Shown: piece after piece, positions 2,770 to 63,750 of the stretch | Layout of the letters: each line of letters starts with the position of its first letter | Position numbering within the stretch: position 1 is the first letter of the stretch | Origin: a bacterium | GTDB lineage: Bacteria > JAMCPX01 | Assembly (NCBI GenBank): GCA_021792615.1 | Contig: JAJYUJ010000008.1 | Span: 11,900 to 75,899 of the forward strand | DNA length: 64,000 bases | Direction of reading: 5' to 3' | The notes under the pieces: generated by a model | What the model was told of the DNA's origin: nothing | Databases searched by the model: none | What the model saw: only the letters and a program-made list of their open reading frames with translations | Position numbers and translations under genes: made by a program

Positions 2770-3011
2770 AATAACTCCTTTACAGGGCATCTTTCTTATC
2801 ATATTTATTCTGTTTTATCCAGTTTTATTTTTTTATTTTTCGGACATTGGTTATCGACGGCAGGCTTGATTTCCACGGTTCTTTTATGGTTGTTGATTGC
2901 AATTTCCCCCCTGTGTGTTAGGGTTTCGGGAATATGCTGGATAGGGATAAAGAAAAACAAGCCGGTTATCCTGATTTTGCAATCTTTAAAATATAAGGAA
3001 GGGGATGGGAT

Positions 3012-4501: not shown

Positions 4502-4559
4502 CAACCCGAAAAAGACGATTAAAAAATAAGGAAACTCCCTTAGTGCATTTTTGGGTTAT
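4502..4559. repeat. Miniature copy of the TTAACCCGAAAAA...TTTTTCGGGTTAA terminal-inverted-repeat element family
   Basis: tcAACCCGAAAAAgacg ... gtgcATTTTTGGGTTatc: inverted termini that match the termini of the 230-bp elements at 7042, 41657, 45441 and 51204. Confidence 0.4.
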
Positions 4560-6262: not shown

Positions 6263-7045
6263 ATGGGTATAGTTGAATACAAGAAAAAAGCCGCGCTCGG
6301 TATTATTACCATGAACAGGCCGGATGCCATGAACGCCATCAACGCTGAACTCGGCAATGCTTTATTAAAGTCACTTATCGATGCGGAATACGATAAAGAG
6401 GTAAGGGCCATCATGCTTACCGGGACAGGAAGGGCATTCTCAAGCGGAGGGGATGTAAAAGCGATGCTCGCCAGTGCAGAGCCAAAGGGAAAGTTTTTCA
6501 AGGAGCTCACCGTTTATTTGAACGGGATCATCAACACCATACTCATGATGCGGAAACCGGTCATAGCAGGCATGAACGGTGCGGCTGCGGGTGCCGGGGT
6601 AAGCCTCGCACTCGCCTGCGATCTCGTCACTGCCGCCCGTTCTTCACGGTTCAACCTTGCATACACCAAAATAGGTCTTACGCCTGACGGCGGTGCAACG
6701 GCCATGCTCGCACACCATGTCGGGCCGAAAAGGGCCATGGAATACATCATGTTAAACCCCGACATCACCGCAGAGAAGGCATTGGAGATCGGACTGGTCA
6801 ACAGGGTTTTTGATGATGCCACCTTTATGGAGCAGACGATATCGTTTGCACAGGCTCTTGCCGGCGGGCCTACCGTTGCGTTCGCATATACGAAACGTAC
6901 CATGAACCACGCATACCCGGGGCCGCTGGAACGGATACTCGAACTCGAGCGGGAAGGCATAGCTGCCTGCGGATCCACGGAGGACTTCAAAGAGGCGAGC
7001 GCAGCCTTTGCAGAAAAGCGTACCCCGGTATTCAAGGGCAGTTAA
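6263..7045 (+). CDS. Enoyl-CoA hydratase/isomerase (crotonase family)
   Basis: 260 aa with crotonase motifs (AFSSGGD, GxNGAAAGAG oxyanion-hole region). The TAA stop codon is contributed by the first bases of the downstream MITE-like element. Confidence 0.85.
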   Translation: MGIVEYKKKAALGIITMNRPDAMNAINAELGNALLKSLIDAEYDKEVRAIMLTGTGRAFSSGGDVKAMLASAEPKGKFFKELTVYLNGIINTILMMRKPVIAGMNGAAAGAGVSLALACDLVTAARSSRFNLAYTKIGLTPDGGATAMLAHHVGPKRAMEYIMLNPDITAEKALEIGLVNRVFDDATFMEQTISFAQALAGGPTVAFAYTKRTMNHAYPGPLERILELEREGIAACGSTEDFKEASAAFAEKRTPVFKGS

Positions 7046-7268
7046 CCCGAAAAATGCGTTTGAAAAATAAGAAAGTTTAGGTGATGAGCGATAATCCCGC
7101 GTCAAATAAAGGTATTCTTCGAAAATCCGATGAGGAAACCATACCGGGTAATTGCATATAAACATACAGAGAACTTAAATCTCGTTTCTATAAAGAAACG
7201 TTTAGATATCAGGTGGATCGCGGGATTGAGCGAACAAGTAAACTTTCTTATTGCATTTTTCGGGTTAA
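7042..7268. mobile_element. MITE-like non-autonomous element, copy B (227 bp, inverted relative to copy A), with about 17-bp perfect terminal inverted repeats that begin and end in TTAA
   Basis: Starts TTAACCCGAAAAATGCG and ends CGCATTTTTCGGGTTAA (complement). The internal sequence is homologous, as reverse complement, to 41657-41893. Confidence 0.75.
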
Positions 7269-7506
7269 CCCGGTGTTCTCTGCAAGAAAGGAAGATATCC
7301 GCCTTTTATTCCGAATACTACCAGTCCGCTGTTGACAAGCTGTTGAAAATGCCCCTGCATGTCATTGCATTGCGAGGAGTCCCGCCGGAGGCGGGACGAC
7401 GAAGCAATCTGTAACTTATTGACATATAAAAACCGGAATTGCCCGACCCATCTTTGCCGTGTGCCCGCGTTTGCAATGACCGTAATTCGAGTTTTTCAAC
7501 AGCCTG

Positions 7507-12681: not shown

Positions 12682-12758
12682 TCGGGGCGAGCCGATTTGA
12701 ACGGCCGACCTCTTGCTCCCAAGGCAAGCGCTCTGGACCAGGCTGAGCTACGCCCCGC
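12682..12758 (-). tRNA. tRNA-Pro (anticodon TGG)
   Basis: The reverse complement reads GCGGGGCGTAGCTCAGCCTGGTCCAGAGCGCTTGCCTTGGGAGCAAGAGGTCGGCCGTTCAAATCGGCTCGCCCCGA. Cloverleaf with anticodon loop CTTGGGA. CCA is not encoded. Confidence 0.8.
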
Positions 12759-13040
12759 TAATAATAATACCTACCAACTTTCCTGGTTAATCTCAACCTT
12801 GCCTTGTCCGCCCGCCCGCTCACCTTCTCGCGGGCGTGAACAAACCTGAGGCTCTTTCTTCATCACCTCGTTCACCCCAAGGCAAGCGCTCTGGACCAGG
12901 CTGAGCTACGCCCCGCTAATACATTACCTATCAAATTCTCTCAGCCTTCACCATAATTGCCTTGTCCGCCCGCCTGCTCACCTTCTCGCAGGCGTGAACA
13001 ATCGTGAGGCTCTTTCTTCATCGCCTCGTTTATTGCATAT
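12716..13040. repeat. Tandem duplication, two units of about 160 bp. Each unit comprises the 5' half of tRNA-Pro plus about 120 bp of its upstream flank and carries an internal CGCCCGC...GCGGGCG hairpin.
   Basis: Unit 1 (about 12716-12875) and unit 2 (about 12876-13040) are around 85-90% identical by eye: ccaaggcaagcgctctggaccaggctgagctacgccccgctaata...ccttgccttgtccgcccgcc(c/t)gctcaccttctcgc(g/a)ggcgtgaacaa... Confidence 0.8.
12876..12917 (-). pseudogene. Truncated tRNA-Pro fragment (5' half through the anticodon loop), produced by the tandem duplication
   Basis: Over about 41 nt it is identical to 12718-12758 of the intact tRNA-Pro. It lacks the T-arm and acceptor 3' strand. Confidence 0.75.
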
Positions 13041-25576: not shown

Positions 25577-26054
25577 AGTACTGTTTTATTCAGTTTAATC
25601 TTTTACCGCTTGTCACGGCAACGATTATAAAACCTATTCCTATTCTGTGCATATTCATGTACAAGTGTCAATCTGACAGAGAGTATCCACTCTCAAAAAC
25701 CTTCCCGGTTTGCCGCTCAATGTTTGCTATCATCAAAAGCTTGACAAGCAGGAATTATAGCATAATATGAAGTTGTGAAAAAGACTAAATTACTTTTATA
25801 TTTCAATAAGTTAGTCAATAACAACACTTTGTGGTCAGTTTTTTACACTATACCATATATTGTTTATATTTAATGGTTTTTTTTCGCATGAAAAGCAGGG
25901 GAAAAGCACAGAAAATGAATGGTAACTATTTGTATTATATATACTTTACAGGTTTTCCACAGGTGTTGAAAAACTTGTGTGTTTCTCATGCTGGTTTGCT
26001 TTTGATCTCAACAAGTTACACTACAAGTTATATGATAATTATAAGGGGGCCTCT
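25577..26054. other. AT-rich mnmE-dnaA intergenic region; candidate oriC / dnaA promoter region
   Basis: About 480 bp at around 30% GC. DnaA-box-like 9-mers: TTTTCCACA near 25953 and GTATCCACT near 25683. There are few perfect boxes. Confidence 0.4.
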
Positions 26055-27371
26055 ATGGAAGCGTGGGAAAAAATAAAAAAAGAATTGATTAATATTTATA
26101 AGGATACCAACGACGATCCGTGGATAACTATCTTAAATCCTTTAAGTTTTAATGATAACTCCCTTATACTTGGGGTACCTGATGATTTTTCATTAGACTG
26201 GATAAAAACTCACTATCACTCTGATATATTGAAATTGGCAAGGTCTATAATCGGCGACGGAACAAATGTCGAGTTGGTAATCGACCATAGAGAAGAAATC
26301 GATGTTGAAAGTCACGCTTTTTTACCTAATATAGGGTTTACCCATCTCAATAATTCAAAAGGCCTTTTAAAAAACTATACCTTTGATAATTATGTGGTAG
26401 GCGAATCAAATAAATTTGCAAGCGCTGCCGCGGTTGCCGTTTCTCAAAACCCGGGCAGGTCATATAATCCTCTTTTTATATACGGCGGTGTCGGACTCGG
26501 CAAAACACACGTTATCAATGCGATCGGCAACCTCATCGACGATGAACATAAAGGGTTGAATATCATTTATATGACCACGGAAAATTTCGTTAACGATCTT
26601 GTGAATCATCTGAGAGACAGGAAAATGGATATTTTCAGGGAGGTCTATAGAAATTGCGATGTGCTGCTTATCGATGATATTCAGTTTATTTCGAATAAGG
26701 AGCGATCCCAGGAAGAAATGTTTCATACATTCAATACGCTGTATGAAGAAAAGAAACAGATAGTATTTACGTCCGATAAACTCCCCAAAGAAATTCCCAA
26801 TATAGAGGAGCGGCTGAGAAGCAGGTTCGAGATGGGTCTTATCGCAGACATACAGGTACCCGACATAGAAACGAAGGTAGCTATTATAAAAAAGAAGGCA
26901 GAGAGTGACCGTATCGAGATCGATGATGAAATAGCTTTTTTCCTGGCATACAACACCCAATCGAACATACGGGAACTCGAAGGCTATCTTACCCGGTTGT
27001 CCGCGTATGCAATTTTGACAAAGACAAAGCTGAATATCCACGTTGCAAAAGAAGTTTTATCCGGTCTCATTAGAAAAAAGGATAAATGGCTTACCATAGA
27101 TGATATCCAGAAAGCAGTAGCCATGCATTTCAAAATAAAAGTTTCAGACCTTCTTTCTACGAAGAGAATGAAGTTTATAGCCCTCCCCAGGCAGGTGGCA
27201 ATGTTTTTGTCCCGCACGCTCACCAATGCTTCTTATCCTGAAATAGGACTCCAATTTGGGAACAAGGACCATTCAACCGTCATTCACTCCGTCAATAAAA
27301 TAACAGAGATGATAAAGGACAATCAAAGTATAAAAGATGCTGTTGAAAAAATCAAAAAAGGTTTAGGATAA
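26055..27371 (+). CDS. dnaA: Chromosomal replication initiator protein DnaA
   Basis: Walker A GGVGLGKTH, sensor LIDDIQF, and domain IV (RQVAMFLSRTLTNASYPEIGLQFGNKDHSTVIHS). Start at MEAWEK with the RBS AAGGGGG. Strikingly low GC, about 33-36%. Confidence 0.95.
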   Translation: MEAWEKIKKELINIYKDTNDDPWITILNPLSFNDNSLILGVPDDFSLDWIKTHYHSDILKLARSIIGDGTNVELVIDHREEIDVESHAFLPNIGFTHLNNSKGLLKNYTFDNYVVGESNKFASAAAVAVSQNPGRSYNPLFIYGGVGLGKTHVINAIGNLIDDEHKGLNIIYMTTENFVNDLVNHLRDRKMDIFREVYRNCDVLLIDDIQFISNKERSQEEMFHTFNTLYEEKKQIVFTSDKLPKEIPNIEERLRSRFEMGLIADIQVPDIETKVAIIKKKAESDRIEIDDEIAFFLAYNTQSNIRELEGYLTRLSAYAILTKTKLNIHVAKEVLSGLIRKKDKWLTIDDIQKAVAMHFKIKVSDLLSTKRMKFIALPRQVAMFLSRTLTNASYPEIGLQFGNKDHSTVIHSVNKITEMIKDNQSIKDAVEKIKKGLG

Positions 27372-27556
27372 GAGAGTGATAAAGTTGTTGAAAAAGTACA
27401 ATTTATTTTTTATAGTGTTTATCAACAGAATAAGAACAATAGATTAAACAGGAATTATGAATTGTTTATATAAAAAATTCAATAACATAAGATAATAATT
27501 ATTTTATAAACATGCTTTACTACTACTAAAAATATAAAGACTATTAGGAGAGAATA
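27372..27556. other. Extremely AT-rich dnaA-dnaN spacer; alternative oriC / DNA-unwinding-element candidate
   Basis: About 20% GC. Contains TTATCAACA, which is 8/9 of the DnaA box TTATCCACA, near 27418. Confidence 0.35.
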
Positions 27557-28651
27557 ATGGAATTTACAATAGATAAAAGAATTTTGCTGATAGAAGTAAG
27601 CAAGGTTATCGGTGCAACGGAGCGAAAAGCTACAATGCCTATTTTATCAAATATATTATTAAAAGCGGAGAAGGGGACTCTTAAGATAACGGGAACGGAT
27701 TTGGAAGTTACGATAATAAGCATCATCAACTGTAATATTGTATCGGAAGGACAGGTATCCATTCCTGCAAAGAAATTTTATGATTATATCAGAGAATTGC
27801 CGGACAGGGACATCAACATAAAAAAAGAAGACGGTTTTATAGAGATCAGTACGGAAAAGATTTCCGGCAGATTAAAGGTGTTACAGGCAGAGGATTTTCC
27901 ACATATAGACGAATACAAGGGAAGTTATACGAAGGTATCGTATGAACAATTATTAAAGATGATCGATAAAACAATCTATGCAACGTCAATCGATGAAGTA
28001 AAATATAGCTTGAATGGTGTTTATATAGAAAAGGCCCTCGATAGTCTGCGTTGTGTTGCGACGGACAGTCACCGTCTTGCTCTGTACGAGGATGAAAGTC
28101 TAAAATCTATAGAGGGTCTTACAAAAGGTATCATCGTTCCAAGAAAAGGTCTGTATGAAATAAAGAAAATCGGCACGGAAAATGAAATAAATATCGCGGT
28201 AGAAAAAAATAAAAATTTAATTGTGAATATAGGGAATACGATTATACAAATACGGTTACTGGATTATGATTTTCCGGATTATAAATCGGTTTTACCTTCC
28301 GAAACAACAATAAATATAAAAATAAAAAAAGATATTTTGGTGTCCGCGGTCAAAAGGGCACAATCGATATATCAGGAAAAAATATCGCGGGTTGTATTGG
28401 ACATACAGAAAGACACAATCATCGTCGAGAGCAACGAACCCGATATCGGTGAAGTAAAGGAAGAAATAGAGATCGACTATAAAGGTAATCCGCTGAAAAT
28501 AGGGTTTAATGGCAAATACCTGCTCGATTGTTTGAACTCTATGGACGGCGAATTCGTATCCATGGGTTTCAATAACGAACAAAGCGCAAGTACGTTTTTT
28601 GCGGACGACAATAAAAAGCATATGAACCTCATCATGCCGATGAGGATGTAA
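27557..28651 (+). CDS. dnaN: DNA polymerase III beta sliding clamp
   Basis: 364 aa with a three-domain clamp architecture, starting MEFTIDKRILL, and a C-terminal MPMRM. Low GC, like dnaA. Confidence 0.93.
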   Translation: MEFTIDKRILLIEVSKVIGATERKATMPILSNILLKAEKGTLKITGTDLEVTIISIINCNIVSEGQVSIPAKKFYDYIRELPDRDINIKKEDGFIEISTEKISGRLKVLQAEDFPHIDEYKGSYTKVSYEQLLKMIDKTIYATSIDEVKYSLNGVYIEKALDSLRCVATDSHRLALYEDESLKSIEGLTKGIIVPRKGLYEIKKIGTENEINIAVEKNKNLIVNIGNTIIQIRLLDYDFPDYKSVLPSETTINIKIKKDILVSAVKRAQSIYQEKISRVVLDIQKDTIIVESNEPDIGEVKEEIEIDYKGNPLKIGFNGKYLLDCLNSMDGEFVSMGFNNEQSASTFFADDNKKHMNLIMPMRM

Positions 28652-29561: not shown

Positions 29562-29792
29562 ACACACCTCCTGAGGCATAACATATACCATATATAAAAA
29601 AATACAAGAACAAGGCCGCAGGATTTTACCCGGCATCGTCTTTAACTCCTCCCCTGCTCCGAATAAATCCATAAAACACCCGCAGGCATTTTCCGGTTCA
29701 TCCACAAATGCATTTGAAAAACAGGGAAGTTTGTATATAGTTGCAATGTGCAATAAAGAGAGTAAATATCATTCCAGAAAAGGAGATAAGAT

Positions 29793-39985: not shown

Positions 39986-40274
39986 GGTGAATCTCTTGGA
40001 CAATAATGGTTTTCCGGTTGGTGCTCATCATTGGAGAGATGAGGCGGGGAAGGGAGATAATAACGAGACGCAGAGAACATCTCACAACCTTCCTTTTTTG
40101 TGATATAATGCCCTTACAAGAGAAAGTAACCTAAATTCACTACGTGCACGATGAAGACGCCGAAGTTAAAAATATATTTCGTGAACAGGCCGCACCGGAG
40201 ACGGATGGCCGGGCAGAATGCCGGTAGGAGAAGTCCGCATCATGCCTTTTTATATTCTGTGAAAGGAGACCCTC

Positions 40275-41621
40275 ATGTGTGATACAATCGTTGCTACAGC
40301 AAAGGCAACCGCCGATGGAACTGTCATACTTGCAAAGAACAGCGACAGGGAAGCCAACGAAGCCCAGCTTTGGAAGTACATTGCCCGTCGATCGTATGCC
40401 GGGGACACACAACTCCAGTGCACCTACATTTCTATCCCTCAGGTAAAGGAAACCCATGAAATGTTTCTGTCAAAGCCGTTCTGGATGTGGGGAGGCGAGA
40501 TGGGTGCAAACGCCAAGGGTCTTGCCATTGGCAATGAAGCGGTTTTTACGAAAGAACCGTACGAAAAAACGGGACTGCTTGGCATGGATTTAATACGCCT
40601 TGCACTTGAGCGGTGCAGCAGCGCCTATGACGCGCTCATGTTAACAACGGAGCTTATCGAATGGTATGGGCAGGGCGGCAACGGCGGAATGGCTCATAAG
40701 CTTTATTATCACAATTCATTTATTTTTGCCGATACCAAAGAAGCCTACCTCCTTGAAACAGCGAATAAACATTGGACAGCCATGAAAGTCGACGGTGTCA
40801 GAAGCATTTCCAACGGCCTGACTATTGAAGAGGATTTTGACTCTTCTTCCAAAGGTATCCAGGACTATGCTCGTCAAAAAGGGTATCTGAAAAAAGGGCA
40901 GACGTTTAATTTCCGGAAGTGTTTTTCTGATACCTTGTACACCCGTTTTTCACGATGTTCGGACAGGCAAACCCGTACCACTGCCTGCGCCCTCCGAGAT
41001 AATACGTCCCTGACTCCAAAAAAAATGTTCGCCATTCTCCGGGATCACGGAAACAGCGATACGCCTCTGCCTCCGGACAAAACATCCATGGGTACCGTTT
41101 GTATGCATGCATCGTTCGGGCCGCTGCGCACGAGTCAATCGGTTGCCGCTTTTGTTGCACATCTGCGCGCGGATACGCCTGTTTTCTGGGCAACGGGTTC
41201 ATCGGCAACCTGTACCAGTGTCTTTATGCCGTTCTATCTTACCGGTAAGGAGATAGATTATTTTCCGGCCGAAGAAACCGGTACCTATTCACCGGCATCA
41301 TACTGGTGGATGCATGAAAAGATCCACCGCCAGGCAATTTTCAAATGGGACTTCTTTCAGAAATATATTGTTCCTGACAGGAAAGGATTGGAGGAAGAGT
41401 TCGCTGTAAAGGAACAGGAGATCTACAAGCAGAAGAACACTCCTCTGCAAAAGTATTTTGATTTTTCCCGGTCTTGCGTTGAAAAGGTCCTCGGTATTCA
41501 CGGGAAATGGGAAAAAGAATTGAAAGAAGCTCCGTATTCCAAAATAAAAACTACCTTCAAGCTTTTCTGGAATGCGCAAACGAAAAAAGCCCAACTGAAG
41601 GGCAACGGAGTTACCCCTTAA
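40275..41621 (+). CDS. C69-family dipeptidase-like Ntn hydrolase
   Basis: The N-terminal MCDTIVATAKATADGTVILAKNSDRE matches the C69 signature (Cys2 nucleophile, ...ADGS...ARNED). Confidence 0.7.
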   Translation: MCDTIVATAKATADGTVILAKNSDREANEAQLWKYIARRSYAGDTQLQCTYISIPQVKETHEMFLSKPFWMWGGEMGANAKGLAIGNEAVFTKEPYEKTGLLGMDLIRLALERCSSAYDALMLTTELIEWYGQGGNGGMAHKLYYHNSFIFADTKEAYLLETANKHWTAMKVDGVRSISNGLTIEEDFDSSSKGIQDYARQKGYLKKGQTFNFRKCFSDTLYTRFSRCSDRQTRTTACALRDNTSLTPKKMFAILRDHGNSDTPLPPDKTSMGTVCMHASFGPLRTSQSVAAFVAHLRADTPVFWATGSSATCTSVFMPFYLTGKEIDYFPAEETGTYSPASYWWMHEKIHRQAIFKWDFFQKYIVPDRKGLEEEFAVKEQEIYKQKNTPLQKYFDFSRSCVEKVLGIHGKWEKELKEAPYSKIKTTFKLFWNAQTKKAQLKGNGVTP

Positions 41622-41656
41622 CACTTTGTTTCGTCCTCCTTTTCTAAAGAAGGAGG

Positions 41657-41893
41657 CTTTGATAAATTAACCCGAAAAATGCAATAAGGGAATTTACATA
41701 TTCGCTCAATCCCGCGATCCACCTGATATCTATACATTTCCATAGAGAAACGAGATTTCAGTCCTCTGTATGTTTATATGCAATTACCCGGTATGGTTTC
41801 CTCATCGTATTTTCGAAGAATACTTTTATCTGACGCGGGATTATCGCTCATTGCATAAACCTCCTTATTTTGCAAATGCATTTTTCGGGTTAA
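41657..41893. mobile_element. MITE-like element, copy A (237 bp), with TTAACCCGAAAAATGCA terminal inverted repeats and TTAA at both termini
   Basis: Starts TTAACCCGAAAAATGCAATAAGG and ends TGCATTTTTCGGGTTAA. Homologous to 7042-7268 in the opposite orientation. Confidence 0.8.
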
Positions 41894-41971
41894 AAAACAA
41901 TGGTGTTGGACTTACCCGTCGAACCCCTTTTTATAGAAGGGCAGGACTTTTTGTGATAAAGACCATGGTGT

Positions 41972-42715
41972 ATGAAGATACTGGTGTGCGTAAAACAGGT
42001 GTCTGTGCCCGGGACGTATCCGGCCGCCGACAAGCCCCCCCCGGGGTTCCGGATCAACAGTTATGACGAGTATGCGCTTGAAGAAGCGCTGCTGTTGAAA
42101 GAGCGTATCGAAAAGACAACCGTGCATGCCGTTTCTGCGGGACCGGAAAGGGTTACCGCGGTTATCAAGCGGGCAATGGAAATGGGCGCAGACCAGGGCA
42201 TGCATATCCGGTATGAACAAGAAGAGCAGCTCACGCCGTATCAGGTTGCGACGCTGATTGCATCGTATGCGCGGGATCGACAGTACGATATTATTCTGAC
42301 CGGCGTCATGGCGGATGACGATATGCAGATGCAGACAGGGCAGATGATTGCCGGGATACTCGGTTATCCGTATGCATCGTCTGTAGTCAGCCATGAGATT
42401 CGGGAGGGCAGGACGATGTACGTTGAAAGGGAGTGCGATGCACGCCAGAGGCAGTGTCTTGAAATAGAAATGCCCTGTGTGCTTACCATTCAGTCAGGCA
42501 TCAACAGGCCGCGCTATCCATCGCTTTCGAATATCCTGAGGGCAAAACAGCAGAAGATTGAATCTATCAATGCCCTTGACCTGCCTGAGGCCAGGGAAAC
42601 AGAGGTAAGGCTCTTTTCGCCCGGGATAAAACCAAAGGGGACGATCCTGCAGGGTACCCGGAGGGAAAAGGCAGTACAACTGCTCGAAATTCTGCATGAG
42701 AAAGCCCTTCTTTAA
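41972..42715 (+). CDS. etfB: Electron transfer flavoprotein beta subunit
   Basis: MKILVCVKQV... 247 aa. Confidence 0.9.
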   Translation: MKILVCVKQVSVPGTYPAADKPPPGFRINSYDEYALEEALLLKERIEKTTVHAVSAGPERVTAVIKRAMEMGADQGMHIRYEQEEQLTPYQVATLIASYARDRQYDIILTGVMADDDMQMQTGQMIAGILGYPYASSVVSHEIREGRTMYVERECDARQRQCLEIEMPCVLTIQSGINRPRYPSLSNILRAKQQKIESINALDLPEARETEVRLFSPGIKPKGTILQGTRREKAVQLLEILHEKALL

Positions 42716-42729
42716 AGGAACGTGCATGC

Positions 42730-43722
42730 ATGAGAAATAAGATCGCAGTCATAGCCCAGCATGCAGACAACAGGATCGATCCTGTTACGTATGAAGCGGT
42801 ATCCTGTGCCCTGGAGTTATGTGCAGGAGAGACTTCATGCATTCAAATTATCGTTCCAGGCGACCGGGTAGAAAAGGTCGCGCAGGAAATATCCGGGGAA
42901 ACAGGTATTGACACCATAGCCCTGGAAAACGAACTCCTGAAAATCTACAACGCAGAGGCATACACATCAGCGCTTGTCACTTTTTTCAGGCAACGGGCAC
43001 CCGGATATATTCTTATACCGCATACATCCGTGGGTTACGATTTTGCACCGTTGCTTGCCATCAAACTCGAGGCATCCTGCATAACGGCAGTGAAGCAGGT
43101 AAACGGTTCGGATGGGACCACGGCATTTGTGCATGAGGTTTTTGACGGGAGGCTTTACGCCGAGGTTGTTTCAAAAACAAAAACCACGGTGATAACTATC
43201 CAGCCCGGTGCATGGGAACCCCTCGGCAGGCAACCGGGCAAAAGCGGCATTGTTGAGACAAGGAACGTAACGGTTAATCCGGGGAAAACCAGGACTATCG
43301 CATTCAGGCAATCAGATTATCAAGGGGCAGCTCTGGCAAACAGCGAGGTTATCGTATCCGCAGGAAGGGGCATCGGCAAAAAAGAAAACCTGTCATTGAT
43401 ATATGAAGTTGCAAAACTATTCCCGCGTTCCGCTCTGGGCTGTTCGAGGGCGGTGTGCGATGCCGGATGGCTTGAATACAGTCACCAGGTGGGCATAACC
43501 GGTTCGACGGTATCGCCGAAGCTCTATTTTGCAATCGGCATATCCGGAGCCGTTCAGCATATCACCGGCATAAAGGGTGCACAGGTGATTGTTGCGGTAA
43601 ACAGCGATCCCGCCGCGAGGTTTTTCACCATTGCGGACTATTGTATCGTGGAGGACCTGACGCAGTTCATACCCACCCTTGTCGAAGAATTCAAAAAAAA
43701 GTACGGCTCTTTCTCAAAATAA
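42730..43722 (+). CDS. etfA: Electron transfer flavoprotein alpha subunit
   Basis: 330 aa with a C-terminal FAD-binding region (SRAVCDAGW...QVGITGSTVSPKLYFAIGISGAVQH). Confidence 0.9.
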   Translation: MRNKIAVIAQHADNRIDPVTYEAVSCALELCAGETSCIQIIVPGDRVEKVAQEISGETGIDTIALENELLKIYNAEAYTSALVTFFRQRAPGYILIPHTSVGYDFAPLLAIKLEASCITAVKQVNGSDGTTAFVHEVFDGRLYAEVVSKTKTTVITIQPGAWEPLGRQPGKSGIVETRNVTVNPGKTRTIAFRQSDYQGAALANSEVIVSAGRGIGKKENLSLIYEVAKLFPRSALGCSRAVCDAGWLEYSHQVGITGSTVSPKLYFAIGISGAVQHITGIKGAQVIVAVNSDPAARFFTIADYCIVEDLTQFIPTLVEEFKKKYGSFSK

Positions 43723-43797
43723 TTTTGAAACGGGAGAAAACCCTTTTCTTACGATCGCAAATAGGGTAAGAGACACCATGAGGATAAACCAGGAGCT

Positions 43798-44571
43798 ATG
43801 AAAAAATCAAAACCAATAATGCATAAACTAGGCAGCGCGGCCGTGAAAACCGGTGTTATCGTAGGGAATACGATCGTAGAAAACTATAAAAAAATAGACC
43901 CTGATGTTATTCGCCATCTCTTGCAGGTTCCCCTGCTCAGCTATTCTCTTTTCGTGTCAAGACATGAAAAGATCGATCCCGGCAAGCCGGACGGACACCC
44001 TCCCCTTATATTTGTTCACGGACTCGGCGGGAACAGGGGAAACTTCCTTCTCATGTCCTGGTACCTCTGGCTGCTTGGCAGAAAACGCAGTTACAAGATC
44101 CACTTCGATGCAGGACAGTCTATACAAGATATGACCGCGGCACTTGCTCGTTTCATACGGGAAGTACTCAAGGTCACGGGGCAGCGGCAGGTCGAAATCG
44201 TTGCCCACAGCCTTGGCGGACTGGTTGCACGTATGGCAATCAAGAAATACAGGCTTTCGCATCATGTCAAGACCCTCATCACCCTGGGCAGCCCGCACCA
44301 TGGGACATACTCCGCACGCTACGCAAACACGGCGATAACGAGAGAGATCAGGCCCAACAGCAAACTCATAAAGGAGCTGGAGAAACAGCCCTGGCCAAAG
44401 GGCGTACGAGGCGTAACATTCTGGAGCAGGAGCGATCTCCTGGTCATACCGCCGGAGTCCGCTGCTATGGACGGTACAACGCAGGTCGAGGTTACACCGT
44501 TTACGCATTACAGTTACCTTATCGATCCGAAAAGCTGGGCTGCTGTTCAACGTGCCCTCGAGAACGGATAA
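43798..44571 (+). CDS. Alpha/beta hydrolase (lipase/esterase-like)
   Basis: LIFVHGLGG...VAHSLGG nucleophile-elbow motif. 257 aa. Confidence 0.7.
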   Translation: MKKSKPIMHKLGSAAVKTGVIVGNTIVENYKKIDPDVIRHLLQVPLLSYSLFVSRHEKIDPGKPDGHPPLIFVHGLGGNRGNFLLMSWYLWLLGRKRSYKIHFDAGQSIQDMTAALARFIREVLKVTGQRQVEIVAHSLGGLVARMAIKKYRLSHHVKTLITLGSPHHGTYSARYANTAITREIRPNSKLIKELEKQPWPKGVRGVTFWSRSDLLVIPPESAAMDGTTQVEVTPFTHYSYLIDPKSWAAVQRALENG

Positions 44572-45440: not shown

Positions 45441-45676
45441 ATAACCCGAAAAATGCAATAAGGAAATTTACTTATTCCCGCGATCCACAACCCCCTCATT
45501 CCCCCTTGACAGGGAAAATCATTTCTTAGGGGGCTGAATTTTCTTCTTTTCATTTCCTCTCCTCTTAGGAGAGGATTAAGGTGAGGTCTATGGTCGTCTT
45601 CATGAGACCTCATCCGCACCCTTCCCTGCCGGGTGGGTACCCCATCGCTCATTGCATAAACTTCCTTATTTTTAAT
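45441..45676. mobile_element. MITE-like element, variant copy C (about 236 bp). It shares the ATAACCCGAAAAATGCAATAAGG end with copies A/B but has a distinct hairpin-rich interior.
   Basis: The 5' end is homologous to the A/B terminus. The interior has the CCTCTCC-tctta-GGAGAGG and GAGGTCT...AGACCTC hairpins and a CCCCCTTGACAGGG motif. The reverse complement matches 51204-51474. Confidence 0.7.
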
Positions 45677-45702
45677 ACACACGCTCCCGGGTCAACCCGT
45701 GC

Positions 45703-50995: not shown

Positions 50996-51203
50996 ACCAT
51001 CCTCTTCTCTTTATTTTATCCCGTTGAAAAGTTGAGCCCTGCAGGCACAAACCATTTTGATAAATAAAACGCCTTATCAAAAGGGCATTATTATCACCGC
51101 ATCCTTTCTAACGGGATTTATCCGGATCACAGTACCATGCCTGACTGATTTTATCAAATGGATACGGAAAGTGCGTCTGAAAAATAAATGAGGAAACCCG
51201 CAT

Positions 51204-51474
51204 AATGCGTTTTAAAAATAAGGAAGTTTATGCAATGAGTGATGGGGTACCCACCCGGCCGGGAAGGGTGCGGATGAGGTCTCATGAAGACGACCATAGA
51301 CCTCACCTTAATCCTCTCCTAAGAGGAGAGGAAAAGAAAAGAAGAAAATTCAGCCCCCTAAGAAATGATTTTCCCTGTCAAGGGGATAAGTAAGGTCTCC
51401 CCCTGTCAAGGGGGAATGAGGGGGTTGTGGATCGCGGGAATAAGTAAATTTCCTTATTGCATTTTTCGGGTAAC
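51204..51474. mobile_element. MITE-like element, variant copy D (about 270 bp), inverted relative to copy C
   Basis: Ends ...TTATTGCATTTTTCGGGTAAC. The interior is near-identical to the reverse complement of 45441-45676, with an extra roughly 25-bp internal duplication (GGGATAAGTAAGGTCTCCCCCTGTCAA). Confidence 0.7.
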
Positions 51475-51527
51475 TGTAATGAGCGATGGGATGAAAGGAT
51501 CGCGGAATTGAGTGAAAAATGCTGCCG

Positions 51528-52733
51528 CTATTGCAGAGCCGAAGCAACAGCCTTTTCGAACAGTTCCAGGCCCTTTTTCAGCTCCTGCCGGGTAATGATA
51601 AGCGGCGGCAGAAACCTGACGATAGTACCGTTGGTCACATTGACGATAAGACCCGATTTCAGGCATGCATCAAAAACCTTTGCCGCATGGTCGGGATTAT
51701 AAAACTCCGTGCCCAGGGCAAGCCCTATGCCCCGGATGTCTTTTATGGTATCCGGATATTTTTTCTTTATCTCCCGCAGTTGTTTTAATGCGGCGGCGCC
51801 GAGGTCTTTGGCATTGCCGGACAGCCTGTGCTTCATTATATAATTTATCGAAGCTATCCCGGCCGCTGCGGCAAGGGGCGAACCCCCGAACGTTGTGCCG
51901 TGGGTACCATAATCGAAATATTTGGATACCGCTTTTGTTGCGAGCATTGCCCCCATGGGTACGCCCCCTGCAATGGATTTCGCAATGGTGACCATGTCCG
52001 GCTTTATTCCATAATTTTCGTAAGCGAACAGCCTGCCCGTCCTTCCAAGTCCCACCTGCACCTCGTCCATAATCAAAAGGATGTCCTTTTTCTTTGTCTG
52101 CTCCCGGACAAAACCCATATACTCCTTTGTTGCGGGATAAATGCCGCCTTCACCCTGAACGGGCTCAAGGATCACCGCGCACACGTCATCCCCCAGTGCT
52201 GCATGCATGTCGTCGATATCATTAAAGCCCACGTACCTGAAGCCCGGCACCATGGGCTCAAACCCAATCTGATATTTCTTTTGTCCCGTCGCGGAGAGTG
52301 TGCCGTACGTCCTGCCATGAAAAGAGTTGTTCGCACTGATCACGACATACCTGCCCCGGCCGTACTTTTTGTATGAATAGAGCCGTGAAAGTTTGAGTGC
52401 GCCCTCGTTTGCCTCTGCACCGCTGTTGCAGAAAAATACTTGATCCGCAAAAGAATTTTTTGTAATCAACCGGGCGAGTTCCGCCTGGGGAGCAGTGTAA
52501 AAATCATTTGTTACCAGGATAAGCTTTTTTGCCTGTGCCGAGATTGCCTTTATGACATCGGGGTTGGAGTAACCGGTGTTTGCAGCCCCCCGCGCACCGA
52601 GAAAGTCCATGTACCGTTTTCCGCTGTTGTCCCACAGGTATATCCCTTTGCCTTTCGTTATGACAAGGGGTATCCTCTTGTAGGTGTGCATGATAAAATC
52701 ATCAGCCATTTTTATGATATCATCTTTTCTCAT
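51528..52733 (-). CDS. argD: Acetylornithine aminotransferase (class III PLP aminotransferase)
   Basis: 401 aa with the PLP-Lys region (DEVQVGLGRTGRLFA) and ArgD-like length and context. Confidence 0.9.
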   Translation of the reverse strand: MRKDDIIKMADDFIMHTYKRIPLVITKGKGIYLWDNSGKRYMDFLGARGAANTGYSNPDVIKAISAQAKKLILVTNDFYTAPQAELARLITKNSFADQVFFCNSGAEANEGALKLSRLYSYKKYGRGRYVVISANNSFHGRTYGTLSATGQKKYQIGFEPMVPGFRYVGFNDIDDMHAALGDDVCAVILEPVQGEGGIYPATKEYMGFVREQTKKKDILLIMDEVQVGLGRTGRLFAYENYGIKPDMVTIAKSIAGGVPMGAMLATKAVSKYFDYGTHGTTFGGSPLAAAAGIASINYIMKHRLSGNAKDLGAAALKQLREIKKKYPDTIKDIRGIGLALGTEFYNPDHAAKVFDACLKSGLIVNVTNGTIVRFLPPLIITRQELKKGLELFEKAVASALQ

Positions 52734-52799
52734 TACTGCTATCCTCTTTTATTTTTAATCTTAAATTAGTAATATTTAATTTTTTATTTTTTCATATTC

Positions 52800-52845
52800 T
52801 CGAATATTGAATATTTAATTTTGAGTTTTGAATTTCTATTCGTTA
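52800..52845. promoter_or_regulatory. Candidate ARG-box-like operator(s) in the argB-argD spacer
   Basis: TTTGAATTTCTATTCG resembles the ARG box consensus TNTGAATWWWWATTCANW. An adjacent TTGAATATTTAATTTTGA half-match is present. The spacer is AT-rich. Confidence 0.25.
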
Positions 52846-53709
52846 CGTTATCTCCGTCCCTACACCTTCGGGCGTGAATATCTCCAGCAGTACGGCGTGC
52901 GGGATCCTTCCATCAATGATATGGCATTTTTTTACGCCATGCTTGAGTGCGTCCACGGCAAACCTCACCTTGGGGATCATGCCGCCCTTTATTACCCCGG
53001 AGCTTATGAGCCCTTCGACATCCTGCGATTTTATATCCGGCAGCAATTTGCCGCTCTTATCGAGAACACCGTCAACATCCGTGAGCATAATGAGTTTTTC
53101 GGCTTTCAGGGAAGAGGCGATCTTTGCAGCGGCAACATCCGCATTTACATTGAATGCGCGGCCGTCATCACCGACAGCGACCGGAGCTATAACCGGTATA
53201 AAGTGGTTCAACTCCAGTGTCCGTATGATCTTCGTATCGGCGCTCACGATATCCCCCGTCCTTCCCATGTCGAGTATATCACCGCTCTCCCTGCTCTTCA
53301 TCTCTACCATCTTGGCTATCAAAAGTTTGCCGTCTTTTCCGCTTATACCGACGGCCTTGCCGCCGAGGTGATTGATAAGGCCGACGATTTCCTTGTTGAT
53401 CTTTCCGACGAGGACCATCTCGACGACATCCATGGTCTTCTCGTCCGTTACGCGCAATCCGTCGATGAACTTGCTTTCCTTGCCCAGTTGTTTGAGCAGG
53501 TCGTCTATCTGAGGGCCTCCGCCGTGCACGACCACGGGCTTGAGACCGATGTACCACATCAGGATAATGTCGCGGGCGAAATTGTTTTTCAACTGTTCGT
53601 CGAGCATTGCATGGCCGCCGAATTTAAACACGAACGTCTTTCCGTAAAAGCTTTTTATGTACGGCAATGCCTCTATAAGAACGGATGCCTTTTGAATATT
53701 GTTTTCCAT
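52843..53709 (-). CDS. argB: Acetylglutamate kinase
   Basis: FVFKFGGHAM...VVVHGGGPQI... 288 aa. Confidence 0.93.
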   Translation of the reverse strand: MENNIQKASVLIEALPYIKSFYGKTFVFKFGGHAMLDEQLKNNFARDIILMWYIGLKPVVVHGGGPQIDDLLKQLGKESKFIDGLRVTDEKTMDVVEMVLVGKINKEIVGLINHLGGKAVGISGKDGKLLIAKMVEMKSRESGDILDMGRTGDIVSADTKIIRTLELNHFIPVIAPVAVGDDGRAFNVNADVAAAKIASSLKAEKLIMLTDVDGVLDKSGKLLPDIKSQDVEGLISSGVIKGGMIPKVRFAVDALKHGVKKCHIIDGRIPHAVLLEIFTPEGVGTEIT

Positions 53710-53711
53710 TT

Positions 53712-55130
53712 TTAAAGGATATACTTGCTCAGATCCTCGTTCTTCAAAATCGGATTGAGCTTTTCTCCGACGTACTTTTCATCGATTACAAACTTGCTGT
53801 CTTTGTATTTCGATGTGTCGAAGGATATGTCTTCCAGCAGCCTTTCCATTACCGTGTGCAGCCTTCTTGCCCCGATGTTTTCAAGCCGGTCGTTGCTGAT
53901 ACTCGCAATCTCCGCAATTTTTTCTATGGCGTCTTTTGTATAAACGAGTTCCACATTTTCCGTTTTCATCATCTCTATGTACTGCTTTGTCAGGGCATTG
54001 TCCGGCTCTGTCAGTATCCTGATGAAGTCCTCTTTTGTCAAAGGCTCGAGTTCTACCCGGATCGGAAACCTTCCCTGCAATTCCGGGATAAGGTCCGACG
54101 GTTTGCTGACGTGGAAGGCACCTGCGGCTATAAACAGCATGTGGTCTGTCCTTACCATTCCGTACTTAGTCATCACGGTTGTCCCTTCTATGAGCGGCAG
54201 AAGGTCTCTCTGGACACCCTCTCGCGACACATCGGGTCCGTAACCCGATTCTTTGCTTGCTATCTTGTCTATCTCGTCTACAAATACGATCCCGGATTCC
54301 TCTACCTTTTTAATGGCTGTCCGCACGACCTTGTCCATATCCACAAGCTTCTCGAGCTCCTGCTGGATGATGAGCTCCCGTGCCTCCATGATCTTTATCT
54401 TTTTCTTCTTTGTTTTCTTCGGCAGCATGGTTTCGAACATCTCCCGCAGGTTGAACTCCATCTCATCGCTGCCCATGCCGGAGAAAACCTCTATGACCGG
54501 CATCGGCATGTACTGGATGTCCATCTCCACATAGCGGTTGTCGAACTTGCCGTCCCTGAGCATCGCCCTGAACTTTTCCCGTGTGCTCTTGGCGTCTTCG
54601 ACGATCTCGAGCATTTTCTGCTCTGTTTCCGGAGGCTTGTTGTTCGCGGGTTTTTTCTTGATGGGCAGTAAAAGATCGAGAAGTCTCTCTTCCGTGAGCT
54701 CTTCGGCCTTCGGCAATAAGTTGTCTTCTTCCTCTTCCCTGACCATTTTAACGGATATCTCGACGATATCCCTTACAATCGATTCCACATCCCTGCCGAC
54801 ATAACCGACCTCGGTGTACTTTGAAGCCTCGACCTTGAGAAAAGGCGCCTGGGCAAGCTTTGCAAGCCTGCGTGCTATCTCTGTTTTGCCGATACCGGTC
54901 GGACCTATCATGATGATATTCTTGGGGGCTATTTCATCCCGAATTTCTTCCGGCACATGCTGCCTTCTCCATCTGTTGCGCAGTGCTATTGCAACCATTT
55001 TTTTGGCATCTTTCTGACCGACAATATATCTGTTCAACTCCTGGACTATTGCCACAGGCAGCAGGGTATCGCTCGGTTCAATCTGTTCAAGTTTGTCTGC
55101 CGCAACAACGGCATTCCTCGGTTTTCTCAT
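53712..55130 (-). CDS. hslU: ATP-dependent protease ATPase subunit HslU
   Basis: Walker [16 protein letters not shown] and the hslU I-domain. 472 aa. Confidence 0.93.
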
Positions 55131-55144
55131 CGTGTTTTACCTCT

Positions 55145-55672
55145 TTATAATTCTTCTATTGTAATAGTGCTGTTGGTGTAAATACATATCTCCGATGCAA
55201 TCTTCATTGCATTCTCGGCTATTTCCCTTGCCTCAAGATTGGAAAACCTTACCATTGCCCGCGCCGCAGACAAAGCGTAACTTCCTCCGGATCCTATTGC
55301 GACGAGGTTATCATCGGGTTCTATCACATCCCCTGTTCCGGAGAGTACCAGGGAAGTTGATTTATCCGCTGCAATCAGAAGGGCCTCAAGCCTTCTCAGG
55401 ATCTTATCCGTCCGCCAGTCTTTTGCAAGTTGTACGGCGGCCTTGAGGAGGTTCCCCCTGAACTCTTCGAGCTTTCCCTCGAATCTGTTGAAAAGGGTAA
55501 ACGCATCCGCTGTCGAGCCTGCAAAACCGACAAGGACGGTGTCGTTATAAAGCCTCCGTACCTTTTTTGCCGTGTGCTTCATTATGGTATCGCCCATGGT
55601 CACCTGTCCGTCACCTGCCAGGACGACCTTTCCCTTGTGCCGTACACCTATAATCGTTGTTCCGTGAAACAT
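55145..55672 (-). CDS. hslV: ATP-dependent protease subunit HslV
   Basis: [25 protein letters not shown] (Thr2 nucleophile after the Met). The tracked ORF is over-extended into the hairpin repeat. Confidence 0.92.
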
Positions 55673-55685
55673 GCCAACTCCTTTT

Positions 55686-56642
55686 TTAATTTCCCCCTGA
55701 TAAGGGGGACAAAGGGGGTTTCGACCCCTCACTTTTCATTCCCCGCTGCTTCCCCTTGTGTGCCCGCGGATGCGCATCATCGTAAACCTTCATGAGCCTG
55801 TCCATACTTGTGTGCGTGTAAATCTGTGTCGTCGAGATGCTCGAATGACCGAGCAGCTCCTGAATAAACCTTAAATCCGCACCTGCATCAAGCAGATGTG
55901 TTGCGAATGTATGCCGTAAAGAATGCGGGCTTATGTGTTTGTTGATGCCCGACTTCTGCATATATTTTTTTACAATCATACCAACGGCCCTTCGTGTAAG
56001 CCTTTTCCCGTATTTGTTTACAAACATAGCCCCTGTTTGTGCCTTGCCCTGTAAAAAAACCATTCTTTCCTTCAGATAATGCCCTACGACCTCAACAGCC
56101 TTTTTATTGACCGGAACAACACGCTCTTTTCTTCCCTTCCCGATAACCCGCACATAGCCTATATTAATATCAATATTCTCAATATCCAGTCCTACAAGTT
56201 CAGAAACACGCAATCCGCTTGCGTAAAACAGTTCCAGCATTGTCCTGTCCCGCAGGGATAAGAAGCTGTCGCCCTCCGGCAGTTCGATGAGGCCGAATAC
56301 CTCGTCAACATTCAGAAATCCAGGAAGCAGCTTGTCCTTCTTCGGTATTGCTATAAGTTCGGCAGGATTCATCCCGATATGATGTTCCCTCAGTAAAAAC
56401 TTGTAGAATGTTTTTAAAGCGGCAAGCTTCCTTCCCACAGAACTTTTCTTGTCCGTTTTCAGAAGCGAGGTTATGAAACTCCTTATCTCCGGCAAGCCTG
56501 CCGATTCAAGAGATTTCGCGGGATGTGTGGTCTTTAAAAATGCCGAAAATTGCCGCAGGTCAGAGAGGTAGGCATCAAGAGTATTGCCGGATGCGCCTTT
56601 CTCTACGTTGAGATAGGTACTGAAGGCATCAATATAATCCAT
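55686..56642 (-). CDS. xerC: Tyrosine recombinase XerC/XerD family
   Basis: R...HxxR...Y catalytic region [12 protein letters not shown]...[13 protein letters not shown]. The C-terminal roughly 20 codons read through a GC-hairpin repeat. Likely true start at MDYIDAF. Confidence 0.88.
55690..55735. repeat. GC-clamped hairpin repeat (CCCCCTGATAAGGGGG, then ACAAAGGGGGTTTCGACCCC) between xerC and hslV
   Basis: Same motif family as the tandem arrays at 63095-63195 and 63680-63750. Confidence 0.7.
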
Positions 56643-63094: not shown

Positions 63095-63195
63095 TCCGCA
63101 TTTCCCCCTGATAAGGGGGCATCTCCCGTATCTCCCCCTGATAAGGGGGCATCTCCCGTATCTCCCCCTGATAAGGGGGATAAAGGGGGTTTAAA
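63095..63195. repeat. Tandem array of three 30-bp units (CATCTCCCGTATCT + hairpin CCCCCTGATAAGGGGG), ending ATAAAGGGGGTTT
   Basis: Hairpins at 63104-63119, 63134-63149 and 63164-63179, with an exact 30-bp period. The whole unit repeats with no unique spacers. Confidence 0.85.
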
Positions 63196-63198
63196 AAG

Positions 63199-63750
63199 AT
63201 GAAACCACAATTTATTCCTTATAATAAAGAATTAATTAAAAATGCTAAGGAAAACAGGAAAAATCCAACTGTAGCAGAGAAAAAACTGTGGCGTGATGTA
63301 CTTAGTAACAAGCAATTTACCTTGCATAAATTTACAAGACAAAAGCCTTTGGATAATTTCATAGTTGACTTTTACTGTTCCGAGCTTCTGTTAGTTATTG
63401 AAGTTGATGGCGACACGCATGCCAATCAGGAAGAATACGACAAACAACGCAGCAGAATTTTATTAGAAAAATACAATATCCAAGTCATAAGATACTACAA
63501 CAGTGAAGTATTAAAAAATATTGAAGGCATACGCACAGATTTACTTGAGAAAACAAAACAAAGAAAACAACAAATCAAACCAACCCCCCAGCCCCCCTTG
63601 TCAGGGGGGATAAGAAGGCTATCCTCAGACAAAGAAAAAAGCCTGGTTAAGGAGACTCCTCCGGGACAAGGGGCATCCCTTTCATCTCCCCCTGATAAGG
63701 GGGCATCTCCCGTATCTCCCCCTGATAAGGGGGATAAAGGGGGTTTATGA
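63199..63750 (+). CDS. DUF559 endonuclease-domain protein (Vsr-like PD-(D/E)xK fold). The C-terminal roughly 55 codons read through the downstream hairpin array.
   Basis: Core motifs TxxExxLWxxL...FxxQxxxxxxxVDFxxxxxxLxIExDGxxH...D..R...L...G. About 33% GC. The true protein probably ends near 63590. Confidence 0.75.
   Translation: MKPQFIPYNKELIKNAKENRKNPTVAEKKLWRDVLSNKQFTLHKFTRQKPLDNFIVDFYCSELLLVIEVDGDTHANQEEYDKQRSRILLEKYNIQVIRYYNSEVLKNIEGIRTDLLEKTKQRKQQIKPTPQPPLSGGIRRLSSDKEKSLVKETPPGQGASLSSPPDKGASPVSPPDKGDKGGL
63590..63750. repeat. Second hairpin array (CCCCCCTTGTCAGGGGGG, then two 30-bp units, then ATAAAGGGGGTTT), a direct repeat of the array upstream of the DUF559 gene
   Basis: 63718-63748 is identical to 63165-63195. 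Confidence 0.8.

Follow-up and report, generated by a model that had tools for sequence, protein, structure and literature searches.

Insertion sequences (ISs) of the IS1380 family (IS1380, IS1247, ISEcp1 and ISPme1) duplicate 4-5 bp of target DNA, a range into which the 4-bp duplication of the short elements described here falls. The subject of this work is a family of such elements in a 64,000-nt stretch of a bacterial genome (the window: contig JAJYUJ010000008.1 of assembly GCA_021792615.1, positions 11,900-75,899, forward strand), in which a first-pass annotation had pointed to repeats resembling MITEs (miniature transposable elements bounded by inverted repeats). Among the described IS1380-family members, IS1247 is listed with a length of 1672 bp, inverted repeats of 16/13 and a direct repeat of 5 bp (PMC3281130), and ISEcp1 and ISPme1 use imperfect surrogate ends (PMC9330008). 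Neither strict TTAA targeting nor abundant MITE derivatives are reported for the IS1380 family in the literature searched, ISfinder lying outside it. In that literature, TTAA targeting is a trait of the eukaryotic piggyBac elements and is not described for IS1380. TTAA and CCC/GGG are canonical piggyBac features, and IS1380 transposases serve as a distant prokaryotic outgroup of piggyBac (PMC10140906).

The classical bacterial MITEs (Correia, Nezha, Chunjie, ERIC and RUP) are intergenic, 100-300 bp long, bounded by terminal inverted repeats (TIRs) and able to form long hairpins; they are multicopy, include truncated forms and size variants, and differ between relatives in which sites are filled and which empty (PMC3184786, PMC10969869). 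The window family resembles them in these respects and differs in its target duplication (Chunjie has 9-bp direct repeats) and its parent family. The string 'TTAA' appears nowhere in the text of the two MITE reviews (PMC3184786, PMC10969869), and the literature searched held nothing specific on bacterial TTAA MITEs. One other prokaryotic element, ISHsp2 of the IS630 family from Halomonas, resembles the window family in that it is reported to produce 4-bp direct repeats of 5'-TTAA-3' (PMC3606827).

Structure and insertion of the element

The canonical element is 219 bp long, has the ends CCCGAAAAATGC(A/G)...(T/C)GCATTTTTCGGG and is flanked on either side by a duplicated TTAA. In the copy that had been flagged in the window (the 41667 copy), the TIR of 13 nt is followed by subterminal AATAAGG/CCTTATT motifs, and the two ends can be told apart, as the 'B' end (on the 41893 side) carries a Shine-Dalgarno-like site and an ATG.

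Insertion of this copy was examined in orthologous loci, which were obtained via homologues of ETF-alpha with 94, 89, 85 and 70% protein identity. One of these loci (L046) aligns to window positions 40214-41670 and 41890-43942 at 94.6% identity, and the two alignments overlap by 4 nt, TTAA. The difference between L046 and the window at 41667 is exactly 223 bp, i.e. the 219-bp element and one TTAA: L046 reads CTTTGATAAA-TTAA-AAAACAATGG (...GATAAA-TTAA-AAAAC...), and the window reads CTTTGATAAA-TTAA-[CCCG...CGGG]-TTAA-AAAACAATGG. The 41667 copy is likewise missing from a more distant locus (L042), and insertion in the window lineage is therefore the parsimonious reading. The spacer between the PilZ and Na+/H+ exchanger genes is 23 nt long in L042 and L043 versus 309 nt in the window, where it includes a longer variant of the element (type 2, described below).

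The flanks were compared across the 22 complete pairs of ends in the family. TTAA/TTAA was found in 13, and three have matching flanks that are not palindromic (TTGA/TTGA in L015, TCAA/TCAA in L005 and TTAC/TTAC in L022). As the flanks are direct repeats and not reverse complements, they represent a 4-bp target-site duplication with a strong preference for TTAA, and are not part of the TIR.

These observations establish that the element is mobile. The first-pass annotation had reasoned that copies confined to one gene context, or lacking empty sites, would be unlikely to be mobile; neither pattern was found, since the contexts vary both in the window and in metagenome-assembled genomes (MAGs) of relatives, and L046 retains a single TTAA. 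Structurally, the family is a MITE by every criterion: the element is short and without a transposase, has TIRs and a TTAA duplication, occupies many varied sites and has an empty site. The dated insertion postdates the divergence from the 94.6%-identical lineage. From the identities among its copies, given below, the family was active at about the time when lineages of ~95% identity separated, or later.

Full-length elements with the same termini

JGI metagenome contigs were scanned with TTAACCCGAAAAATGC, which gave at least 120 matches, and the bare termini were then paired. Among the loci listed, at least ~40 hold TTAA-CCCGAAAAATGC...GCATTTTTCGGG-TTAA pairs at 52-545 bp spacing. Both flanks are TTAA in at least 43 of all 62 terminus pairs listed; in each metagenome pair the search pattern imposed one TTAA and left the other free. 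The matches listed form at least 16 clusters by internal sequence: one is the window family, and at least 36 further TTAA-flanked short elements, with unrelated internal sequence, fall into at least 15 others. The end profiles of the window family match only L065 and L142 among the at least 120 metagenome matches.

The same termini bound full-length ISs. The one found among the metagenome loci occupies positions 208-1830 of L121 and is 1,623 bp long, with the structure TTAA-CCCGAAAACTGCAG...[459-aa ORF]...ATGCATTTTTCGGG-TTAA; its right end before the TTAA reads TAAATGCATTTTTCGGG. The 459-aa product of this open reading frame (ORF) reaches 203.8 bits with the NCBIfam model for IS1380 family transposases (NF033539), which has a curated cutoff of 180, and 91.9 bits with Pfam PF13701; its scores against the IS1634 and IS701 models are far below their cutoffs (20.8 for IS701), and it matched no IS630 or IS5 model. 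A second transposase, 35% identical to the first, begins ~110 nt behind TTAACCCGAAAAATGCGG, the TTAACCCGAAAAATGCG end, in L144. More than 2,000 homologues are present in public data, mostly of 460-462 aa; where a source is named, they are labelled IS1380 family transposases and come from MAGs of Proteobacteria, Dehalococcoidia, Deltaproteobacteria and Dissulfurispiraceae. Contigs with two homologues of 78-80% identity have elements of 1,619-1,620 bp, with the ends CCCAAAAACTGCATTTACC and CCCGAATAATGCATTTGCC and, on the other side, ...GCATTTTTCGGG; three further sites, bounded at both ends, have TTAA/TTAA flanks, which brings the fully bounded IS insertions with TTAA on both sides to four distinct sites. 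Where an end is seen on one side only, other flank combinations occur too. The full-length ISs are thus ~1.62 kb long, with a single ORF for a transposase of 459-462 aa; in their length, single ORF, CC-starting ends and a transposase that passes the NCBI equivalog model, they resemble the described members of the IS1380 family.

The window MITE resembles seven of these elements (L121, L144, L181, L182, L184, L186 and L188) over the terminal 16-22 nt including the TTAA. The 41667 copy matches the left end of L188 over 22 nt (95%), with its B end, and the right end of L121 over 17-20 nt (100%); over 16-17 nt, the right ends of the L121 and L188 ISs are the same as its A end. The MITE thus appears to have its transposase-recognition ends, and not its body, in common with the IS1380-family ISs.

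It is very probable that the family consists of non-autonomous, TTAA-targeting MITEs that are moved in trans by an IS1380-family transposase. A DDE transposase of this family, supplied in trans, would recognise the terminal 16-22 bp; the ends of the element would then be joined to cuts staggered by 4 nt at a TTAA site, and gap repair would leave the TTAA duplicated. The mobiliser of the window family would be an IS1380-family transposase of the L121 type, present in the genome now or formerly. The suggestion in the first-pass annotation that a TTAA target might link the repeats to IS/piggyBac-like systems was borne out to the extent that the full-length, TTAA-flanked elements with the same termini encode IS1380-family transposases. 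It had also proposed a search for a full-length IS with the same TIRs, and such ISs were found in other metagenomes (L121, L188), but not in the window and 9 kb beyond it.

Several observations weigh against this explanation. No likeness between the MITE and the ISs was found by blastn-short past the terminal 24 nt; as the likeness is confined to the terminal 16-22 nt, descent of the MITE from the ISs by internal deletion is without support. The ISs with these termini come from other organisms, a cluster look-up returned no accession to tie their transposases to the samples of the window, and neither the window nor the following 9 kb yielded a transposase of the IS1380 family. A 2-bp duplication of TA at a T-TA-A target may still account for the flanks in place of a 4-bp duplication, because TTAA is palindromic and the TTAC/TTAC flanks of L022 alone discriminate between the two. 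Finally, no copy is polymorphic for presence or absence among assemblies that are 97.6-100% identical to the window: every one that spans the insertion site has the same insertion, and many contigs from the same population end inside a copy. The claim of recent activity in the first-pass annotation must be limited accordingly; it holds for the insertion after the split from the 94.6%-identical lineage, but the copies are only 86-97% identical, and this together with the lack of close polymorphism means that the family may be extinct in the lineage.

The element shares with piggyBac the TTAA duplication, short TIRs of the form CCC...GGG and an empty site at which one TTAA stands intact; it differs in its bacterial host and in that the IS1380-type element is one third shorter. 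The only Pfam matches of the L121-type transposase were PF13701 and PF01609, the piggyBac domain not being among them, and sequence and profile searches of the PDB gave no match. With an AlphaFold model of the transposase (pLDDT 72, pTM 0.73), the best Foldseek match was the Tn5 transposase (E = 2e-4, TM 0.41), and no piggyBac protein was among the 50 matches listed. The element is piggyBac-like in its choice of target, yet lies outside the piggyBac superfamily.

Two candidates for long elements were rejected, as the paired termini in L163 and L077 enclose ordinary genes or no credible transposase. Clusters of several TTAA-CCCGAAAAATGC ends were observed in L160 (7108-7312), at a regular spacing of 102 bp, and in L167 (4683-10847), which suggests tandem arrays or hotspots of MITEs.

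Alternative explanations

The MITE might instead be moved by another transposase that uses TTAA, either of the IS630 family, like that of ISHsp2, or of the IS5/IS701 type. The reported direct repeats of ISHsp2 are the same as those found here, the IS5 target YTAR covers TTAA (PMC5009759), and a TA duplication at the palindrome T-TA-A would look identical. However, the full-length elements with these termini are all of the IS1380 family, from two lineages that are only 35% identical to one another. No IS630-family element, with its IS630/Tc1-mariner transposase, was found among at least 125 terminus loci, in which all adjacent transposases are IS1380-type, and the model scores of the L121 transposase given above separate it clearly from IS701, IS630 and IS5. 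TTAA predominates overwhelmingly among the flanks, and CTAG, CTAA and TTAG do not occur there, unlike what a YTAR preference would produce; the flanks of L022 fit a 4-bp duplication. Mobilisation by a transposase of one of these other families is therefore improbable.

The second alternative arises from the B end, where AAGGAGG is followed 8 nt later by an ATG, an arrangement that is conserved. In the window subfamily the resulting frame ends after 25 codons (MSDNPAS(N/D)K(G/S)ILRK...), and in the DBS2-type subfamily a 2-nt difference produces a frame of 50 codons that ends just inside the A end. Several diverged copies keep the 50-aa ORF intact, among them one in which the TIRs have decayed (L172), and the flagged element folds as a single strand into a long hairpin with paired TIRs at -34.8 kcal/mol, better than shuffles (z = -4.3). 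The element could thus be a conserved functional intergenic module, i.e. a gene for a small protein (25-50 aa, beginning MSD/MSE), a structured RNA or a regulatory palindrome. However, four intact 50-codon copies from different MAGs give pairwise pN/pS values of 0.38-1.64 and show no surplus of third-position changes; the ORF stops at 25 codons in the window subfamily, and in others indels, nested insertions or deletion interrupt it. The fold is merely that of the TIRs pairing. Rfam identified two tRNAs only in the window and no family for the element, the contexts of the copies are unrelated, and orthologous sites in close relatives are empty. A search of 5.8 billion proteins with a profile of the pseudo-ORF yielded 19 proteins of 33-84 aa, and all those retrieved are translated MITE copies; no long protein was found, and the idea that the ORF is a relic of the N- and C-termini of the transposase was rejected. 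The ORF is incidental, although weak or lineage-specific constraint is possible, and a conserved functional module is a very unlikely explanation for the family.

Origin of the copies by segmental duplication, recombination between repeats or faulty assembly is scarcely credible: short-read assemblies do break or jump at repeats, several contigs end within a copy, one contig (L033; ERZ27237313 k141_199064, 2302-3471) matches the window exactly as far as the end of the 7042 copy, where unrelated sequence takes over, and type-2 cores that are 93-97% identical next to differing outer B repeats suggest gene conversion, but many independent assemblies and samples have boundaries at TTAA that are exact to the base, the flanks are without homology, and the empty site keeps exactly one TTAA. 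The switch in L033 itself comes either from a jump of the assembly across the repeat or from a genuine copy-to-copy rearrangement.

Copies within the window

The 17-mer TTAACCCGAAAAATGCA, with up to 3 mismatches allowed, matches six times in the window, against 0.30 matches expected, and none of 100 shuffled sequences reached six. The matches lie at 7042 (+), 7252-7268 (-), 41667 (+), 41877-41893 (-), 45441 (+) and 51458-51474 (-). Five copies of the element and several fragments were delimited (Table 1). All five copies are intergenic, as had been noted previously, and lie between five different pairs of genes.

Table 1. Repeats, copies of the MITE and fragments of it in the window; neighbouring genes are given as left / right
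Feature	Positions	Strand	Neighbouring genes	Description
Inverted pair 1	7042-7268 with 41667-41893			227 nt, 90% complementary (repeat finder)
Inverted pair 2	45502-45681 with 51206-51385			180 nt, 97% complementary (repeat finder)
Inverted pair 3	45444-45528 with 51387-51471			85 nt, 93% complementary (repeat finder)
41667 copy, type 1 (flagged copy)	41667-41893	-	peptidase C69 / ETF-beta	element proper 41671-41889, 219 bp
TTAA flanks of 41667 copy	41667-41670 and 41890-41893			
A end of 41667 copy	41667-41683	+		TTAA + 13-nt TIR CCCGAAAAATGCA, 0 mismatches
B end of 41667 copy	41877-41893	-		TTAA + 13-nt TIR, 0 mismatches
7042 copy, type 1	7042-7268	+	enoyl-CoA hydratase / MnmG	227 bp including both TTAA; 90% identical and inverted to 41667 copy
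45441 copy, type-2 derivative	45441-45692	-	PilZ / Na+/H+ exchanger (convergent)	A end intact, outer B repeat degenerate
51193 copy, type-2 derivative	51193-51474	+	argF / argD	core 93-97% identical to core of 45441 copy
4502 mini copy	4502-4559	+	amidase / unknown ORF	58 bp, two decayed ends only; flanks TCAA and TTAT unmatched
Probable B-end remnant	29697-29740	+		AAATGCATTTGAAAAACAGGGAAGTTTGT, without outer repeat; E = 0.006, weak evidence
Fragment	51478-51522	+		inner motifs only, ATGAGCGATGGG...GGATCGCGGAATTGAGTGAA; adjoins 51193 copy
B-like fragment	51165-51187			on the other side of 51193 copy

The first-pass annotation had described two pairs of mutually inverted copies, a mini copy of about 58 bp and perfect TIRs of about 17 bp that begin and end with TTAA. 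The type-1 pair stands, except that the repeat finder places the start of the flagged copy at 41667 and not at 41657; the type-2 copies are present, but one reaches to about 45692 and the other begins at about 51193; and the mini copy is real but decayed. Counting the TTAA, the TIRs match at 17 of 17 positions in the 41667 copy but at 16 of 17 in the 7042 copy, and the TTAA is the duplicated target. The enoyl-CoA hydratase gene (6263-7045) takes its TAA stop from the left TTAA of the 7042 copy.

Aligned with one another, the copies gave TTAACCCGAAAAATGCGTTTGAAAAATAAGGAAGTTTATGCAATGAGCGAT as the B end and GGATCGCGGGAATAAGTAAATTTCCTTATTGCATTTTTCGGGTTAA as the A end, and only these ends are common to types 1 and 2, the cores being unrelated. 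The 45441 copy has the B subterminal module AAAAATAAGGAAGTTTATGCAATGAGCGAT in common with type 1. In both type-2 copies the outer B repeat is degenerate and the core is assembled from several small hairpin modules that are unrelated to type 1; the 51193 copy has an additional 28-nt duplication in the core. One core module, CCCCCTGTCAAGGGGG, is a member of a separate repeat family that is also found at 55689 and 63100-63747. The type-2 copies are derivatives in which the subterminal modules were kept, the core was swapped for other hairpin repeats and one outer repeat decayed, and they are probably now immobile. It may be speculated, by analogy with ISEcp1 and ISPme1, that the use of surrogate ends is the reason for the poor outer repeat of these copies. 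The fragments around the 51193 copy have the same arrangement in L001.

A short repeat of the form (A/T)TCTCCCCCTGATAAGGGGG(A/C)(A/T)AAAGGGGGTTT was observed at several intergenic sites as well as within the type-2 core; it forms a G/C hairpin at 55689-55721, 63100-63192, 63714-63746 and 51395-51427.

Distribution in related genomes

When a 19-mer of the A end was searched for in one genome per species, 28 loci were identified, mostly in MAGs of uncultivated organisms named only 'bacterium'. Ten are in WY2.bin9 (contigs JAKAHI01) and seven in DBS2-1.bin173 (JAJYJX01); DBS2-1.bin76, clean1809, FK_Sedi_A_Bin.102, KM4348-15 and a Pseudomonadota MAG have one or two each. The five remaining matches (two in Sphingobacterium, two in Ureibacillus and one in a Clostridia MAG) were set aside, as they cover the terminal stretch of the search word only and are probably due to chance. 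A scan of viral contigs for the terminus gave five matches, none with family sequence beyond the 16-mer.

Complete copies were recovered from the loci with profiles of both ends. The canonical copy is again 225-227 bp long including both TTAA; copy size overall is 52-219 bp, and up to 464 bp with nested inserts. Minis of 60, 76 and 112 bp were found in L023, L006 and L005, respectively, and the 60-bp mini, which is intact and flanked TTAA/TTAA, is the counterpart of the decayed 4502 copy. Beyond the window, the element was found at one more site 7 kb past the window end and in more than 20 copies in related MAGs, all in different contexts; these include WY2.bin9, DBS2-1.bin173, the JGI samples 3300047584 and 3300047581, and GCA_049971705.1. 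In L020 and L017, two copies abut older ends, with a TTAA common to both. Unpaired ends in L013, L003 and L027 were considered as possible IS ends and rejected, being truncated solo ends beside ordinary genes.

One of the loci in WY2.bin9 (L001) is 94% identical to window positions 51102-55694 and has a type-2 copy at the same position between argD and argF; the window organism is therefore a close relative of WY2.bin9. The window is also 100% identical to parts of DAIDZJ010000008.1 (GCA_027455045.1) and of several ENA/Logan assemblies. Identity among copies is 86-97% within the group formed by WY2.bin9 and the window, and 73-78% between this group and the DBS2 subfamily.

Copies of 321-325 bp contain a nested 94-bp element, CCCCGTTAGAAA...TTTCTAACGGGG, and without it and one TAAA they return to 225-227 bp. 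The L015 copy (471 bp) has a further element within the nested 94-bp one, and the L011 copy (316 bp) holds that further element directly. Minis, solo ends and nested elements of this sort are usual products of MITE decay. The 94-bp element represents a third MITE-like family, seen at the same TAAA inside type-1 copies in L028, L022, L021, L015 and L012, and also at 19862-19955 of L175, which is 7 kb past the end of the window. The CC...GG ends and the A/T-rich duplication of 4 bp hint that this family is a further derivative of IS1380 type.

A second MITE-like family was observed at ~7327-7506, directly after the 7042 copy and in the same spacer, with the ends GCTGTTGAAAA...TTTTTCAACAGCCTG and the inner arms GTCATTGC...GCAATGAC. 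It also occurs in L142 and, nested inside copies of the window family, in L015 and L011. In two relatives that are more distant, runs of GTTTAAAC-like units (CCGTTTAAACCGTTTGAACCG...) lie with solo A ends, at 4740-4800 of L027 and at 7040-7075 and 8740-8790 of L044; such units also occupy the spacer between PilZ and the exchanger in L044.

Other features of the window

The 47 ORFs that tile the window were compared with Pfam, and none encodes a transposase, in agreement with what the first-pass annotation had stated; the sole recombinase is a XerC/D-like tyrosine recombinase beside hslVU. The genes dnaA and dnaN lie at 25977-28651, with mnmE and mnmG nearby, and the window therefore represents a chromosomal replication-origin region.

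A 590-bp segment (63120-63709) with a DUF559 (Vsr-like endonuclease) ORF at 63199-63750 is missing from L175 and L176, which elsewhere are 100% identical to the window, so that this segment is polymorphic within one population. It lies between direct repeats of 91 nt (63103-63193 and 63657-63747, 88% identical) made up of TCCCCCTGATAAGGGGG units, and the polymorphism arose either by insertion of a cassette or by deletion between the repeats. Next to intact tRNA-Pro and tRNA-Arg genes is a 158-bp tandem duplication (12718-12872 and 12876-13030) that takes in 46 nt of the 3' part of tRNA-Pro (100% identical).

Implications

The window family, a MITE with IS1380-type ends, is new, but the kind of element that it represents is already known, and no new mechanism is involved. 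In practical terms, the family disrupts short-read assemblies and provides insertion markers that separate lineages of ~95% identity. Its copies lie where housekeeping genes have their promoters and terminators, one of them in the spacer between argD and argF and one on a stop codon, and effects of the hairpins on neighbouring transcripts are possible.

One terminus, TTAA-CCCGAAAAATGC, is common to an IS1380-family clade from many environments, at least 15 further, unrelated MITE families and the window family, all of which have TTAA flanks. Whether this widespread bacterial clade (1.62 kb, CCC...GGG) and its MITE families are strictly specific for TTAA is a more tentative matter, and we regard it as rather doubtful. 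Were it so, a prokaryotic relative of piggyBac would already have had TTAA together with CCC/GGG and, possibly, seamless excision. Should the TTAA specificity prove real and general, the origin of TTAA selection in the IS1380/piggyBac lineage could be studied in these elements as a simple bacterial system, and the MITEs would be natural reporters of TTAA-specific activity in uncultivated bacteria.

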